Of a stretch of DNA of 64,000 nucleotides, positions 1,621-15,550 are shown one piece after another. The notes under the pieces were generated by a model, which worked only from the letters and a program-made list of their open reading frames with translations, was not told the DNA's origin and did no database searches. Source of the stretch: a candidate division FCPU426 bacterium (GTDB lineage: Bacteria; Oederibacteriota; Muellerivitia; Muellerivitales; Muellerivitaceae); contig CAVYSE010000009.1 of the NCBI GenBank assembly GCA_963771075.1, positions 1 to 64,000 of the forward strand, written 5' to 3'. The first letter of the stretch is position 1, and each line of letters starts with the position of its first letter. A program made the position numbers and the translations under genes.

Positions 1621-1867
1621 AACAATTCTTTAAGCACTTCAAGAAAAGATCCAATTACAAAGAAATAATTTTTATGCTCTTGCCTGCTCATGGCGGCGGC
1701 TCCGAAAACGACCCCTTCAACCCGCCCTGCAGGGCGGTACGGCTGGTCGCGCCGTGAGGGAAGCGGTTGTTTTAGCGGCCAAACTAGGGTGTCCACTAAA
1801 TCGGGGAAGTCCACATGACCAAAGGGGGTAAAATAGTCGTTATAGGGTTGCTATGAGGCCATTCCTC

Positions 1868-2050
1868 AAGTTCAATTAAGCCCACCCGTCAGCCTTTTGG
1901 TTTCGCGGATTCACGCTGCTATTCGTGCTCGAGGCACAAGTTAAAAATTCGATAATCCAGTAGGGAAGCCACCAGCTGTCCATCGTGCCTTACGGCACCA
2001 CCAAATTCCGTGGTCATTCCAAAGGGATCGAATCACAAAACCGAGGCTGA
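1868..2050 (-). ncRNA. Putative bridge/seek RNA of the IS1111-type element
   Basis: Non-coding ~200 bp downstream of the transposase. Contains TGTCCA (1977-1982, matches the target from the core) and CTGCTAT (1916-1922, matches the predicted circle junction ...ACC-TG-CTATG). Boundaries are approximate. Confidence 0.55.
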
Positions 2051-2057
2051 AACCTCT

Positions 2058-3128
2058 TTAGCGCATGGGCCGATACACTTCCTTCCGAACCAACATCGTC
2101 CAAAGGTGAATCAAAAGCTTGTGCGCCATTGCCACAATCGCCTTGTTGACGTGTCCCGTATTACGGACCAGTCGACGAAAAACACGGTAGGCCTGGGTAT
2201 CCTTTTGGATCCATGACCAGGCCGCTTCAACCAAGGTCGCTCTCAAAGTGCCTTTTCCGGCCTTCTGTAAATGGCCTTCCTTCCGGGTTTCACCGCTTTG
2301 CCTGATCCTAGGGGCCAACCCCACGTAAGCCGCCACTTGTTTGGCGTTTTCAAAGCGTTCCGGCTGGTAAATCTCCGTTAATACTTGCAGGGTCGTCACT
2401 TCGCCCACTCCTGGGTGGGTTCTCAGGATCTTGGCCTTTTTCTCGTAGGCCTTCTCCTTCATCATGACCCTCAAACGTATGTTCACGTCCTTGAGCTGCC
2501 TATCAAAGTAAAAAAGATCTTCCAATAGGCGATCCAAGGTGAACCTCAGGGCAGGTGGCAGTTCCATTTCCCGTAATATCCCAATGGCTTCGTGGGTCCA
2601 GTAATCCAACCCTCTGGGAGTTTTGAGCCCATATTGAAGGAAGAAGCTCTTGATCCTTTGTTTGGCCTTGCGTTTCTGCTCGACCATCGCGTTCCTCAAA
2701 CGAACCACCTGCCGGTCAGCTTCTTCCTGGAGGGTTGGGATCGCCACCGCCTTCAGCAATTCTTTCTCCGCATACTCCGCCAGTTTGCTACAGTCCAAAC
2801 GGTCGGATTTTGTTTCAAACTGCGACACGCGAGGAGTCTTGTGCGGGGCGATGACATCCAATGGGTATCCCTCCTCCCGAAGGCGGCGGGCCAGGCCAAA
2901 ACCGGTAGGGCCTGCCTCGTAGACGACCTTTTTCAACCCCACCCGATAAGGCGCCAGGACCTTCACCACCGCCTCCCAGTCCGCTGTCAGGGACTTTGTT
3001 CCGACTTCCTTTCCGTTAATCCTGATTGCCATATAAATACTTCGTTTGTGGACATCCAATCCCACAAACACAGCGTCCCGCTTGGATACCTCCTTGCCTC
3101 GGTATCCTTTTTTGCTAATCTGTTTCAT
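2058..3128 (-). CDS. IS110-family transposase/recombinase (DEDD RuvC-like plus C-terminal Tnp domain)
   Basis: Motifs FVGLDVHK, YEAGPTGF, KSDRLD, HPGVG, AAYVGLAP..QSG. A GGAGGA RBS precedes the ATG at 3128 (alternative start 3134). Confidence 0.93.
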   Translation of the reverse strand: MKQISKKGYRGKEVSKRDAVFVGLDVHKRSIYMAIRINGKEVGTKSLTADWEAVVKVLAPYRVGLKKVVYEAGPTGFGLARRLREEGYPLDVIAPHKTPRVSQFETKSDRLDCSKLAEYAEKELLKAVAIPTLQEEADRQVVRLRNAMVEQKRKAKQRIKSFFLQYGLKTPRGLDYWTHEAIGILREMELPPALRFTLDRLLEDLFYFDRQLKDVNIRLRVMMKEKAYEKKAKILRTHPGVGEVTTLQVLTEIYQPERFENAKQVAAYVGLAPRIRQSGETRKEGHLQKAGKGTLRATLVEAAWSWIQKDTQAYRVFRRLVRNTGHVNKAIVAMAHKLLIHLWTMLVRKEVYRPMR

Positions 3129-3203
3129 GGCCATTCCTCCTTGTGAGTTGCCTGCTCACCGGGACTAGTTTAATCCCGGCGGAGGAATGGCCTTCATGTT
3201 ACC

Positions 3204-3232
3204 TGTCCACGACGGGGACCCAGAGTGGACAA
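3204..3232 (+). repeat. 30-bp palindromic site R1 (left edge interrupted by the IS)
   Basis: TGTCCACGACGGGGACCCAGAGTGGACAA. Confidence 0.9.
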
Positions 3233-11186: not shown

Positions 11187-11216
11187 TTGTCCACTCCACG
11201 GACCCAAAAGGAACAA
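11187..11216 (+). repeat. 30-bp site R4 (degenerate; first site of the array)
   Basis: TTGTCCACTCCACGGACCCAAAAGGAACAA aligns to the consensus without gaps. Confidence 0.65.
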
Positions 11217-11256: not shown

Positions 11257-11643
11257 GTGTTTGTGATAAAGAATGTTTCTGAAATTTTTGTTTCCGACTT
11301 AAGTAAAAAAGTAATACTGTTTTTTATATGTTCATGGGGCGAGACTTTATCGATCTTTTTAATACTGGGAAATTTTCATCCGAAGATATTGGGAGCTGTT
11401 GTTATATTACTAGCGTTATTAATTCAATATATTTTTCTTACAGTTTCGAAAATTAATGATAACGGCAATTTTTATATAAAACTTGGCATTTCTTTATTCA
11501 TCCCTGTTAAATATTTCTTGATGGGATTATTTGCATTGTTACTACCAGAGGGGATGTTTTTATTTGGCGCATATTTTTTCTCAATGATTGCGGGATTTGT
11601 TTTCCTAAATATAGGCGCAAGAAAGAGTTTGAAGAAAAAATAA
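11257..11643 (+). CDS. AT-rich small multi-pass membrane protein (cassette 1)
   Basis: About four hydrophobic segments; the TAA stop directly abuts site R5. Confidence 0.7.
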   Translation: MFVIKNVSEIFVSDLSKKVILFFICSWGETLSIFLILGNFHPKILGAVVILLALLIQYIFLTVSKINDNGNFYIKLGISLFIPVKYFLMGLFALLLPEGMFLFGAYFFSMIAGFVFLNIGARKSLKKK

Positions 11644-11673
11644 TTGTCCACGATAGGGACCCATCGTGGACGA
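11644..11673 (+). repeat. 30-bp site R5
   Basis: TTGTCCACGATAGGGACCCATCGTGGACGA. Confidence 0.92.
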
Positions 11674-11692: not shown

Positions 11693-12169
11693 ATGAAAAA
11701 ATTGATTCTTTTATTTGTTTTAATTTTGGGCTTTTCCGTCGCAGCGAATGCGACGAGTATCAAGCCAACCGACCTTTCGGTTCTTGTGACCCAGGCGGAC
11801 TATATCGTCGTGGGTAAAGTGGTGAAGATGGATATGATCGACGCAAATGGCCAGGAAATCTTCGACAAGAAGGCCAGAACAGGGCCGCGCTCGGGAAAAA
11901 TGATTCGCTATTTCGTTGCCGTGGATCGAAAGAAGACTCTTAAAGGTGACATCAAAAAGATTCCTCAGAGTCTTGTCCTTCCAGATTGGCCCATGTGGAT
12001 CAGGGGTATTGACGGTATGAAAGAGATGTATGAAGGTAAAAACTGTATTTTTCTCTTGGGAGCCCCTAATTTATTTCCTAAACCACAATCTCAATTTGTA
12101 AGGGATATTTCTGAAAAAAGTGAAATCGTAAGAATCCTTAGGTCGGAACACCGAAATACAAATCATTGA
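11693..12169 (+). CDS. Secreted hypothetical protein (cassette 2)
   Basis: MKKLILLFVLILGFSVAANA signal peptide after an AAGGGG RBS; LVTQADYIVVGKV resembles TIMP/OB-like hypothetical proteins. Confidence 0.75.
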   Translation: MKKLILLFVLILGFSVAANATSIKPTDLSVLVTQADYIVVGKVVKMDMIDANGQEIFDKKARTGPRSGKMIRYFVAVDRKKTLKGDIKKIPQSLVLPDWPMWIRGIDGMKEMYEGKNCIFLLGAPNLFPKPQSQFVRDISEKSEIVRILRSEHRNTNH

Positions 12170-12172
12170 GGT

Positions 12173-14149
12173 GCAGAGTAGAGCGCTGGCGCGTATGCCT
12201 TAGAGTACGGTGGCGAATCCAACCCTTTCGGATTGGGCCTCAGTCCGGCTCTCATCACCACGTTTCCAGCGCCCCCTCATCAAACCGTACGTGACCTTTT
12301 CGATCATACGGCTTTCCGACAACCTTTCAACCGGCAGCATTCAAGGCAAAAGCTGGAATCCAGTTCAAACCAAGGCGTTTCACTTCCTCGATCGACCATG
12401 TTCGTCCTTCCCAGGCGTACTTATGCCTCCGAAACAAAGTCAGCCTTTCGAGTACGTAAAATTGAAGCTTGGAAAAGTATGGCTGGCTGTCCCCAATTCG
12501 GAAATAGTTGGCCCACCCCCTTAACACCGGGTTCAAAGCCTTCGCTACATCCTCCATTGGAGATAAGAGCCGCTCTCGGCCCGCCGTCATCTGCTTCACT
12601 TTCTCGGCGATTTTCTTCATGGCCTTCCGGCTCGGCCAGCTCAGGCAACAGGTCTTACCCAATCCTACCACCGGCATACCTACTCGAAAGTGGAACCCAA
12701 GGAAGTCAAACCCTTCCTTCCCAGGCCCCATTTCCACCAGCCGTGTCTTTTCGGGGTGCAGTTCAAGCCCTAGTCGTCCCATCAATTCCTTGATGACTTC
12801 CAGGCTCTTTTCCGCATGGGCTTGGCTTCCGCACAACACCACAAAATCGTCGGCGTAGCGCACCAGCCTACCCAGTTTCCTGTGCCTCTTATTCCAAACC
12901 TTGTCCAGCAAGTGAAGGTAAACATTGGATAACAGCGGTGAGATCACCCCGCCTTGCGGTGTCCCTCGGAGAGTCGGCGTAAGCCTTCCTTCCTCAAACA
13001 CACCCGCCTTCAGCCACCCTCGGATCAGTTTCAAAACCTTCCGGTCACTGATCCTCTGGCGCACCAGCACCATCAGTTTGTCGTGGTCGATGGAATCGAA
13101 ATACTTCCGAATATCTCCATCCACCACCCATCTGTACCCGCCATTGATCCACTTCTTGATCTCCCGGTGGGCCTGCTGGGCTCCGCGTTTTGGCCGAAAT
13201 CCAAACGAGCCTTCCAGAAAGTCCGCCTCAAAGATGGGTTCCACCACCTTCCGGCAAGCCGCTTGAACTACCCGATCCCGAATTACCGGGATTCCCAACG
13301 GTCTCTTGCTTCCATCAGGCTTGGGTATTTCCACTCGTCTCACAGGTTTAGGCAGATACTTCCCAGCTTTGAGTTCTTCCTGGATGCCCTTCAGGAATGG
13401 AATAATTCCCACCTTCTCTTCGATCCATTCCAGCGTTTCCCCGTCCACTCCTCCTTGGCCTTTATTAGCCTTCACCTGTTTCCATGCCGCTGTCAGGACA
13501 TCCCATCGGGTCATCCTGTCATGCAGTACATGAAATCTCCGGCTTGGGCTCCTCTTGGCCGCTCGGTATAGCGCCCTTTGAAGGGTTCGCGCCTTGTCTT
13601 CGGAGTTGTTGGCCCTTTGGGGCATGCTCCAGCGCCTCCCTTTTGAAGGTTGCTTGGTTGAAGCAGGGGTCCTTCCCTCCAGGTGGTTTTGTTGTCCACC
13701 CTTCACAGGTATTGTGACCCCCTCCGACTTCCTCCCGCCCTTGCCCCTTTTCGGTTTTAGCCTTATAGCGGCAAGTCTTTTGGCGGGTAGGATCTCCCAG
13801 GTTGCTTGCAAAGCCTTTCCAGCATTCCGTTCCCCATACGCCGGAGGACTTGCCCCGCTTGCTCCAGATTCTTCAGCGGGATCGTGGCCTTCGCCGGTAG
13901 ACACGCGGCTCGGCATCCTCTTGCACCTTTCGGTGTCCCATTCACGACGCGGCAGGATTCACTTGATGTTGCGGACTGCTAGATTGTTCCCTCACTGAAT
14001 GAGGTTTATGACCCCGTTTCGGGCAGAACCTCTCGGTCCTACGCCGGGGGCTGACTTCCAGGCTCTCTGGCGATTACCTGGTCAGGATTTGGGCTGGCCC
14101 TCTTCGGCCTACTCCCTCACCTGCTGGCTCTACAAACCTTCGCTGGCAC
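12173..14149 (-). mobile_element. Group II intron (IIB-like, probably bacterial class E/F)
   Basis: 5' end GTGCCAGCG at 14149. Domain V GAAAGCCGTATGATCGAAAAGGTCACGTACGGTTTG with AGC triad, just after the ORF. Domain VI closes ...CCAGCGCTCTACTCTGC(AC). The 3' end is at 12173 or 12171. Confidence 0.85.
12327..13625 (-). CDS. ltrA: Group II intron reverse transcriptase/maturase, no endonuclease domain
   Basis: IPKPDGSKRPLGIP, GTPQGGVISPLLSN, RYADD, GFDFLGF, LRGWANYF (domain X). Start taken at MPQRANN. Confidence 0.93.
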   Translation of the reverse strand: MPQRANNSEDKARTLQRALYRAAKRSPSRRFHVLHDRMTRWDVLTAAWKQVKANKGQGGVDGETLEWIEEKVGIIPFLKGIQEELKAGKYLPKPVRRVEIPKPDGSKRPLGIPVIRDRVVQAACRKVVEPIFEADFLEGSFGFRPKRGAQQAHREIKKWINGGYRWVVDGDIRKYFDSIDHDKLMVLVRQRISDRKVLKLIRGWLKAGVFEEGRLTPTLRGTPQGGVISPLLSNVYLHLLDKVWNKRHRKLGRLVRYADDFVVLCGSQAHAEKSLEVIKELMGRLGLELHPEKTRLVEMGPGKEGFDFLGFHFRVGMPVVGLGKTCCLSWPSRKAMKKIAEKVKQMTAGRERLLSPMEDVAKALNPVLRGWANYFRIGDSQPYFSKLQFYVLERLTLFRRHKYAWEGRTWSIEEVKRLGLNWIPAFALNAAG

Positions 14150-14150
14150 G

Positions 14151-14180
14151 ATGTCTACGATGGGGACCCATAGTGAACGT
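14151..14180 (+). repeat. 30-bp site R6 (adjacent to the intron 5' end)
   Basis: ATGTCTACGATGGGGACCCATAGTGAACGT. Confidence 0.88.
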
Positions 14181-14217: not shown

Positions 14218-14544
14218 ATGACGAATAATGACTACTTGGAACATTTCAAGAATATGGATCGTCTCGTATTAAAATTTCTAATTACATTCATTCTGTGGCC
14301 CGTCATAACATTTTTTATAATGGAATTAGCCACAAGGTTGGGTTTTGGTAAGTTTGGTTCCTTTTTTATTGCGATGCCTTTTTTTATTTATTTCGCCGTT
14401 CAATGTGTTATTGCGAAAGAAAAATATTTACGGATCTTATGCCCGAGATGCGGACAAAGTTTTTTTCCTTTTTTCAAATTAAATCCTTTTAGACGTGTGT
14501 GTAGTTATTGTGGTCTGAAGAATGAAAAGAAGATTGAAGAGTAA
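14218..14544 (+). CDS. AT-rich two-TM protein with C-terminal CxxC...CxxC zinc ribbon (cassette 3)
   Basis: Two hydrophobic helices, then CPRC...CSYC; stop 13 bp before site R7. Confidence 0.75.
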   Translation: MTNNDYLEHFKNMDRLVLKFLITFILWPVITFFIMELATRLGFGKFGSFFIAMPFFIYFAVQCVIAKEKYLRILCPRCGQSFFPFFKLNPFRRVCSYCGLKNEKKIEE

Positions 14545-14557
14545 GTGCGTATAAAAG

Positions 14558-14587
14558 CTGTTCACGATGGGGACCCGTCGTGAACAG
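14558..14587 (+). repeat. 30-bp site R7 (perfect arms with compensatory changes)
   Basis: CTGTTCACGATGGGGACCCGTCGTGAACAG. Confidence 0.9.
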
Positions 14588-14599
14588 TGGTTACAGGTT

Positions 14600-15550
14600 C
14601 TAAACCAAATATTTCCTGAACCAATCCCTCTCCGCCTTGAAGGCGTCCTCAAAAAACGCGCCCTCGTAAACGTCGTAATGCCCAGCGCCCTTGACGATAT
14701 GCAGGCTCTTGGGTTCCAGCGCGTTCCCAAACAGCGAGTGGGATTCCTGGACCGGGTTGACCTCATCCTTTTCCGCGCCCACAATCAAAATGGGAATAGC
14801 GACCTCCTTCAACCTTTGTTCCGGGTGGTATTCCAGCGTGTGCCTGAGGAACGAAATGGAAATCTTGGATTCCAGCTGGGGAAATTCCTTCACGGACCTG
14901 GCGAAAAACGCCTTGGATTGGGGGTCGGTTAAGAGGTTGTCGATGGGAAGCATCATGGGTTTGCCCTTCTGCGTTTCCCTTTGCCAGGCCTTGGTGAGCA
15001 TAGAGGATAACTTTTCCTTCTGTTGCGGGGTTTGCCCGCCGGTGATGACCCTTTCCCCATCGCCGAAGGAGATCTGGGCCACCAGGCACTTCACCCGCTT
15101 ATCCTGCGCGGCGGTTTCGATGACGTTCGCGCCCCCGTAGGATGTCCCCCAGAGGCCTATTTTTTCCGGATCCACTTCCGGCAGGGTTTCGGCGAAGGTG
15201 ACGGCGTTTCGGATATCGCGCACCTGTTCCCTCCAGACGAGCTGGCCCTTGTCACCCCCGCTGGCCCCGAACCCCCGATAGTCAAATACCAGGGCGGCAA
15301 AACCATTTTCAGCGAAGGCCCGCGCGAAGGCGGGCAAAAGCAGTTCCTTGAACCCCGCGAAACCGTGGCACAGGATCACGCAAGGCCATTGGGAGCCGGG
15401 CGTTGGGCCCACGGGCGAAGGGCCATCGGGCGAATGCCCGTCGGACGAAGGGCCATCGGACGGATGTCCATCGGGCGAATGCCCGTCGGGAAGGTAGAGA
15501 TGGCCCTGGATGAGGCTGGTTTCGGAATAAAACTGGATGTCCCGGCGCAT
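14600..15550 (-). CDS. Alpha/beta-fold hydrolase
   Basis: LCHGFAG, FDYRGFGASGG, nucleophile elbow GTSYGG, D...GAGH. A GGAG RBS precedes MRRDIQ. Confidence 0.88.
   Translation of the reverse strand: MRRDIQFYSETSLIQGHLYLPDGHSPDGHPSDGPSSDGHSPDGPSPVGPTPGSQWPCVILCHGFAGFKELLLPAFARAFAENGFAALVFDYRGFGASGGDKGQLVWREQVRDIRNAVTFAETLPEVDPEKIGLWGTSYGGANVIETAAQDKRVKCLVAQISFGDGERVITGGQTPQQKEKLSSMLTKAWQRETQKGKPMMLPIDNLLTDPQSKAFFARSVKEFPQLESKISISFLRHTLEYHPEQRLKEVAIPILIVGAEKDEVNPVQESHSLFGNALEPKSLHIVKGAGHYDVYEGAFFEDAFKAERDWFRKYLV
15413..15487. repeat. In-frame 5 x 15-bp tandem repeat
   Basis: Units gggcgaagggccatc / gggcgaatgcccgtc / ggacgaagggccatc / ggacggatgtccatc / gggcgaatgcccgtc. Confidence 0.9.

Follow-up and report, generated by a model that had tools for sequence, protein, structure and literature searches.

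A group II intron that likely retrohomes to a 28-bp palindrome between gene cassettes of an uncultured soil bacterium

The intron and its cassette array

The window, a 64,000-nt stretch of DNA from an uncultured soil bacterium, contains a group II intron inserted among small gene cassettes separated by copies of a 28-bp imperfect palindrome (Table 1). The palindrome has an 11-6-11 structure and about 100 copies in the genome; a matrix built on the genome's own copies found 100 sites, and none in the reversed genome. The intron lies opposite to the cassette genes and leaves cassette 2 intact, as stated in the preliminary description of this DNA. Both flanking ORFs are on the plus strand, and the stop codon of cassette 2 is 3 nt outside the intron. 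Elsewhere in the window an alpha/beta hydrolase gene has at least four in-frame 15-bp tandem units (15397-15471).

Table 1. Positions of the intron, the palindromic sites, the cassettes and the insertion sequence in the window.
Feature	Position	Strand	Remarks
IS1111-type element (IS110 superfamily)	1849..3203	minus	inserted 0-2 nt from the bond used by the intron
28-bp site	3204..3231	plus	left edge bears the IS
Degenerate site	11188..11215	plus	right arm also beside the short serine recombinase gene; below matrix cut-off
Cassette 1 ORF	11257..11643	plus	AT-rich; no family match
28-bp site	11645..11672	plus	ahead of cassette 2
Cassette 2 ORF	11693..12169 (alternative start 11666)	plus	intact; no Pfam or NCBIfam match
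First 3' exon base	12172	minus	A; candidate IBS3
Group II intron	12173..14151	minus	1979 nt; 5' UCGUG ... ACUCUGC 3'
Domain VI	12173..12278	minus	long; bulged A 12179 (position -7), from fold
Domain V	12282..12314	minus	33 nt; AGC triad 12313-12311; AC bulge
Intron-encoded RT/maturase	12327..13625	minus	432 aa; YADD; without endonuclease domain
EBS1 (UGUCUA)	13898..13903	minus	ID3 loop positions 3-8; register set by relatives
EBS2 (AUGGG)	13937..13941	minus	pairing with exon -13..-9; covariation in relatives
28-bp palindromic site (11-6-11)	14152..14179	plus	left arm is 5' exon; IBS1 14152-14157, IBS2 14160-14164
Cassette 3 ORF	14218..14544	plus	AT-rich; no family match
28-bp site	14559..14586	plus	array end

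Domains I-VI, including the catalytic domain V and the bulged A of domain VI, are all present in the intron. Matches to the Rfam D1-D4 and DV/DVI models, above their gathering scores, place domain I at 13964-14100 and domains V-VI at 12173-12316. The ORF for the RT/maturase sits in domain IV. Its product contains only the RVT_1 and GIIM domains and scores 422 bits against TIGR04416 (cut-off 300); the start codon at 13625 was chosen from an SD-like stretch before the ATG and the point where alignments of relatives begin. The textbook length of domain V is 34 nt. Domain V had been described as full length with an AGC triad; the triad is there, and the length is one nucleotide under the textbook value. 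This 33-nt length is that of most relatives, and the class C control (L179) has the 30-nt CGC form.

The intron's 5' end had been placed at 14149, 1 bp from the site (there called R6). This end, which would give an exon ending in GACATC, was ruled out. The TC preceding GTGCC is common to all 11 genomic 5' ends found at first, and relatives have GC or GT in its place, which makes their 5' ends GCGUG or the canonical GUGUG, so that both bases vary within NYGYG. Furthermore, the EBS1 loop register of distant relatives places the exon end two bases further out than 14149. A relative of the intron in genome G004 occupies a different repeat, an empty form of which is present in genome G000. Because this empty target equals exon plus exon only in the register with the intron beginning at 14151, that base was taken as the start. 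The TC thus belongs to the intron, the 5' end is flush with the palindrome, and the 5' exon ends ...CGTAGACA. In empty alleles of two cassettes the base next to the site is T, not GA (4/4 cases). A 5' extension like that of C.te.I1 is unneeded since UCGUG aligns with GUGYG. Compared with the group II consensus of 5' GUGYG and 3' AY, both intron ends are variants (UCGUG and GC); among close relatives the 5' end is GUGUG or GCGUG and the 3' end is UAC. The earlier proposal that the site forms the 5' exon is borne out, for IBS1 and IBS2 lie in its left arm. The first 3' exon base is A after 10/10 full copies and G after two relatives.

Contigs from seven read runs cover the intron and contain no intron-skipping joint, empty allele or splice junction; cassettes 2 and 3 are uncovered in them. 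Intron contigs of 99-100% identity come from one peat RNA run, although contigs cannot show transcription. A promoter scan gave 2 matches where 3.5 were expected.

Genomic copies, target pairing and intron lineage

Ten full copies of the intron are present in the genome. Seven are identical to the window copy, one has a single change and one is nine nucleotides shorter. Counting every intron 5' end gives 13, and 13/13 abut the 28-bp palindrome. The full copies carry ten different 3' flanks and are therefore separate insertions, and the identity of eight of them leaves little time for selection. Near-identical copies at different flanks imply that the intron has probably moved recently. Near a contig end (G000:C26:138261-143781) there is an inverted duplication with two head-to-head partial introns that may be an assembly artefact.

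Eight of the 13 copies are at the right edge of the site in the sense of the array, four are at the left edge in antisense and one is ambiguous. Consequently the antisense, left-edge polarity expected from the window copy is true there but is not a rule. The insertion side mostly follows GC skew. The G-rich strand carries 11/13 copies, one of them near zero skew (p 0.022), and among suitable site ends 9/54 are filled on the G-rich strand and 2/65 on the other (p 0.022). Around some copies the skew is slight, and two copies occupy the C-rich strand. The G-rich strand is, as a rule, the leading strand. If this holds here, the bias fits the lagging-template bias of endonuclease-less introns described in PMC4615759. 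The window array runs against the skew, which would explain why the window copy is antisense.

Pairing of the EBS loops with the exon end, a check proposed at the outset, was found. In the window, EBS1 and the final six arm bases form 6/6 Watson-Crick pairs, and EBS2 pairs with exon positions -13 to -9. The loop could be read in 12 of the 13 genomic copies, and in all 12 EBS1 pairs at 6/6 positions with one or two G-T pairs; 3/12 have an EBS2 mismatch (CCCTT). The EBS1 register is kept in distant relatives with other targets (6/6 pairs in L054, L012 and L086). EBS2 covaries with its target: AUGGG/CCCAT here, ACACC/GGTGT in L131, GAGAG/CTCTC in L132 and AAGGG/CCCTT in L211 and L212. In L132, the G004 relative, EBS1 is altered as well (UUCAUG, facing CATGGR in the target). 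In a sister sub-lineage at the palindrome (L133, L141, L155, L105, L125) EBS2 pairs at 5/6 positions in a shifted register by our reading of the rows.

Flanks of relatives were also compared. Their 26 5' ends include 20 that abut a clear site, 2 at a degenerate site and 4 at unrelated targets, and the EBS sequences of these four match the targets they occupy. Hence the expectation that copies and close relatives would share the cassette site holds for all 13 of the genome's own copies but only in part for the relatives. Introns of about 750-800 nt from the same lineage, ORF-less or deleted, are also found at the palindrome (G027 L210-L215, G008 L105, G020 L106, G000:C2:57252-58050), several of them in near-identical copies.

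IBS1 and IBS2 sit inside the 3' arm of the predicted palindrome stem, so a folded hairpin would hide both, and intron-exon pairing would need the hairpin open. The exon hairpin is weak or absent in three relatives (L131, -0.8; L228, 0.0; L153, -2.6 kcal/mol). Comparable pairing outside the listed sites occurs at 36 positions, several of which are site remnants; 0/36 are filled compared with 13/77 at sites. Folding is more stable at filled sites than at empty sites suitable for insertion (-9.5 vs -6.8 kcal/mol, p 0.02), a difference confounded with consensus match. The empty look-alikes, the better folding of filled sites and the weaker EBS2 of the sister lineage together call for a further determinant beyond pairing. 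By analogy with RmInt1 and RmInt2, this is most likely the intron's protein reading distal exon bases.

RT trees were built with FastTree (112 rows) and IQ-TREE (30 chosen rows). The FastTree tree was built without duplicate rows, without fragments shorter than 330 aa and without 4 rows that were broken or short. Labels for class C, class D and endonuclease-bearing references were assigned from an integron setting, the form of domain V, the length of the C-terminus or Toro's tables and are not all curated names; g4, g5, named class E and named class A references are absent. In both trees the RT shares a clade with RTs of family relatives, of a Planctomycetales intron and of an intron on a Leptospira plasmid (support 100/97 in IQ-TREE). 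One clade with four class C rows is rejected (p-AU 0.0013). The intron RT is not class C, and the AGC triad and 33-nt domain V agree with the original view that the intron is not class C-like. The class C arrangement, a hairpin upstream of a short IBS1 with no EBS2, is also not what is found here, as the 6-bp IBS1 lies within the stem. The g2 and g3 references form a separate node (82/87). On a tree with an unresolved backbone and without g4, g5 and class E references, the RT lies among the class F-like and unclassified endonuclease-less introns of PMC3552965. The best named matches are Rh.sp.I1 (47.5%) and Ni.ha.I1 (40.8%). Traits of class F (g2-g5) found in the intron are the lack of an endonuclease domain and the IIB-like RNA. 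Assignment to g2 was rejected on the YADD motif, which is FADD in g2.

More distant relatives have other targets. Among L013-L084, which span many phyla, the exon ends in ATG in 25/35 relatives with a 5' end read, and TANNNT lies within 14 nt upstream in 25/27 of those ending in a start-like codon (control 1.6%). These introns appear to insert behind leaderless start codons, judging from exon sequences; a literature search on such insertion returned nothing relevant. AGC-triad, non-class C introns of Paenibacillus and Neobacillus (L026-L028, L033, L053, L054, L056) are located just after terminator-like hairpins with T-tracts. The G004 relative of the window intron homes to the 3' end of an imperfect hairpin repeat of about 80 nt. 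Two genes for 370-aa tyrosine integrases are about 2.3 kb away from this repeat (G000:C7:100353 and 111030, L261; G004 L132, L216).

The palindrome, its cassettes and its other insertions

The exact site pattern was found in 24/30 family genomes and 0/30 genomes outside the family. Within clusters the sites are directly oriented, and in 39/44 short site-to-site segments the longest ORF has the orientation of the site. These segments have a mean GC of 43%, compared with 47-56% for whole contigs. A homologue of cassette 2 in G023, a genome of another genus, has 69% DNA identity and lies between two sites 528 bp apart, which is the window spacing around cassette 2 minus the intron. One cassette recurs site-to-site in two arrays at 87%, and another lies between sites in 3/3 congeneric genomes with different neighbours. 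Homology between shared cassettes stops at the sites. For cassette 3, no homologue was found beyond the sites in 30 family genomes. These are arrays of single-gene cassettes between directly oriented sites, as in integrons. A stretch of about 100 bp or more at 1640-1848 of the window occurs behind a palindromic site in six genomic locations with 93-99% identity; it is a repeated array-end module.

The site is not an attC site. The attC cores RYYYAAC or GTTRRRY were found within 40 bp of 0/7 window sites, and the best match to the integron integrase model TIGR02249 scored 41.8 bits against a cut-off of 265 in a genome that is 96.7% complete. Assignment to attC and IntI was rejected on both grounds. 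A single Xer-like tyrosine recombinase is core to the family (29/30 genomes). Directly upstream of its gene is a symmetric 11-6-11 dif-like site (L003:1072-1099, G000:C6), different from the cassette palindrome, which is presumably the dif site of the host Xer. The idea that the cassette palindrome is the dif site of this Xer was dropped on this account, and also for the serine recombinase that adjoins the palindrome. The only Resolvase match in the genome is a 277-aa serine recombinase (G000:C8:80002-80832) with a palindrome 14 bp after its stop codon. The palindrome is likewise near the short form of this recombinase in G027, G024, G004, G029 and G021, compared with 0/6 long-form loci. A search for the short recombinase (E<=1e-30) matched 8/30 family genomes, some with only long forms, and sites occur in 24/30. 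The short serine recombinase is therefore only a candidate enzyme, being missing from most of the site-bearing genomes searched, and it is the best candidate offered by gene neighbourhood. The palindrome itself is most likely the recombination site of a non-integron gene-cassette system.

Further recombinase loci were seen. Three 5'-truncated serine recombinase gene copies (97-98%) are each followed by the same variant site (G000:C6:158404, C8:42239, C28:107693), and three adjacent tyrosine recombinase genes at G000:C5:132584-134984 form a layout that we take to be a RIT element.

The palindrome receives other elements. The insertion sequence in the window has subterminal inverted repeats with 7- and 3-nt extensions and a non-coding region downstream of tnp, and it belongs to the IS1111 family as the available text of PMC11187229 defines it. 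It is at the left edge of the site in 2/2 full copies, and five empty alleles of its window target occur elsewhere in the genome. A guide match was sought in its non-coding region; a single 6-nt match to the target is too short to call. A second IS110-type element was at the palindrome edge in 0/7 copies. A g2-type (FADD) intron inserts after palindrome position 11 in G020, G021 and G027, and G000 has a broken copy of it. In G004 a third intron lineage is inserted after position 19, and 3' ends that match it are present in G014. Insertions at these two positions split the palindrome. The preliminary description had two unrelated elements striking the same left edge in the same orientation. In the window this is correct, the IS110-superfamily element and the intron being on the same strand, but it does not extend to a rule since the intron uses both edges. 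Its broader suggestion that a different intron lineage has converged on cassette sites is upheld by the 13/13 5' ends of a non-class C intron at the site, and unrelated elements do likewise.

Interpretation and comparison with known systems

The intron, an endonuclease-less, non-class C element with ten near-identical full copies, likely retrohomes to the 28-bp palindrome through pairing of EBS1 and EBS2 with the arm. From the observed boundaries, copy number, placement, complementarity and covariation we infer the following steps. The intron would be transcribed from a host promoter and would splice as a lariat from the bulged A. In the RNA-protein particle, EBS1 would pair with the last 6 bases of the arm (TRGACR) and EBS2 with positions -13 to -9 (CCCRT), and the first 3' exon base would have to be a purine. 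A near-symmetric site would offer a target on either strand, with the lagging-strand template exposed at the fork favoured, and this would set the left or right edge. Specificity beyond pairing may be supplied by the protein or by selection against insertions in genes. Since insertion at the outer edge leaves the site and the cassette gene intact, a moving cassette would carry the intron along as cargo.

Several other explanations were weighed. The folded hairpin could be required, as for group IIC-attC introns, with the protein reading a stem-loop on single-stranded DNA and a short pairing completing recognition. More stable folding at filled sites is what this predicts, and it would also account for the lack of insertion at the 36 non-site look-alikes and for relatives located behind other hairpins (another long hairpin in G004, terminator-like hairpins in Bacillota). 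Yet the stem contains IBS1 and IBS2, the intron has an EBS2 that covaries, insertions are also seen behind exons without structure, and the RT is not class C. The T-tract of the terminator-type relatives is matched by an A-run at their EBS2 position. Dependence on the hairpin is thus unlikely. Separate insertions, as indicated by ten different 3' flanks, and the short time for selection indicated by eight identical copies speak against looser homing, in which the tie to the palindrome would come from loss of insertions in genes or from passive spread by cassette duplication. We consider looser homing very improbable, even though many of the 36 unfilled look-alikes are probably in genes and C26 carries two partial copies that are inverted duplicates of each other.

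The nature of the palindrome was weighed in the same way. If it were an extragenic repeat of the REP kind, or a dif-like site at which the host Xer acts, the intron would simply home to a repeat. This would agree with the 11-6-11 geometry, with one terminator-like match at 11671-11646 and with a single Xer-like recombinase core to the family, but the symmetric 11-6-11 site found directly upstream of the Xer gene is a different one. Moreover the cassette sites are in direct orientation, enclose single ORFs of low GC and mark the ends of cassette homology, and one follows the short serine recombinase gene at 14 bp, a neighbourhood repeated with the short form in five relatives and with none of six long forms. 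A repeat or dif identity seems to us quite unlikely.

A wider reading, for which the case is evenly poised, makes the palindrome the crossover site of an integron-like serine-recombinase cassette system with its own parasites, independent of attC. As part of this reading, the parasites would comprise the IS1111 element together with group II introns of three unrelated lineages, one inserting at 11|12, one at 19|20 and one at the outer edge. The edge-inserting lineage would be benign, keeping the site whole and riding inside cassettes. The wider intron group would have repeatedly reprogrammed EBS1 and EBS2 to landmarks of the genome, namely cassette sites, terminators and leaderless start codons. 

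On the retrohoming explanation given first, the window intron occupies a niche resembling that of attC but reaches it through ordinary base pairing, and the cassette system it inhabits has no integron parts. Cassette sites then draw mobile elements irrespective of how recombination proceeds, and such elements in turn mark the palindrome as a functional site. The mechanism of the intron appears ordinary and the surprise lies mostly in the cassette system. The natural series of EBS and target pairs supplies existing test cases for the rules of targeting in an intron class that has received little study.

A search of a literature collection that lacks most subscription papers found no earlier description of this intron or palindrome. 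According to the available text of a 2015 review, the target habits of bacterial group II introns comprise homing sites, terminators and attC sites (PMC4424553). Group IIC-attC introns have a CGC triad and a short domain V and insert in the bottom strand of attC (PMC7923331, PMC4424553, PMC3001079); in IIC introns the hairpin replaces IBS2 (PMC7923331). The window intron resembles these introns in its location at cassette-separating sites, and the window copy is antisense and spares the gene. Unlike them it has an AGC triad, a 33-nt domain V and a covarying EBS2, uses both strands and has no attC. The parallel with IIC-attC introns drawn in the preliminary description therefore fails for mechanism and polarity, as the site is not attC, both edges and orientations are used and EBS2 covaries with the target. 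Single cases of non-IIC introns next to attC have already been published (PMC7923331). The halophile IIB introns of integrons and CALINs (UHB.I2, H.ha.F1/F2) are likewise non-IIC introns at cassette sites, one of them in sense orientation; they differ in being single or truncated copies at true attC sites, with no repeated target shown in the available text of that paper (PMC7923331). Like IS1111-attC elements and REP-targeting IS1111/IS110 elements, the IS of the window targets one end of a repeated site, but its target is the palindrome and not attC or REP (PMC11187229).

Introns of class F/g2-g5 and unclassified endonuclease-less introns, with Rh.sp.I1, Ni.ha.I1 and B.th.I3 among them, as described in PMC3552965 and PMC4244168, share with the window intron the lack of an endonuclease domain, an RT of about 430 aa, a length of about 1.9-2.0 kb and IIB-like RNA. 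In contrast to class F/g2-g5, the window intron is in its own supported clade with the Leptospira and Planctomycetales introns, on a tree from which g4/g5 references are absent. The closest functional likeness is to RmInt1 and RmInt2 of Sinorhizobium meliloti (class D), as described in PMC4615759. Homing of RmInt2 by EBS pairing into a symmetric repeat has been shown experimentally (PMC4615759). The window intron likely shares their EBS-based homing and lagging-strand template bias; both systems are endonuclease-less, with a 2-nt linker and tolerance of an EBS2 mismatch, and both have an inverted-repeat target usable on either replication strand (PMC4615759). RmInt1 and RmInt2 home by EBS1, EBS2 and EBS3 (PMC4615759), the last of which was not located in the window intron. 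Their targets are IS ends (PMC4615759), whereas the window intron, whose RT is of another class, is found at a 28-bp palindrome that separates cassettes and has about 100 copies.
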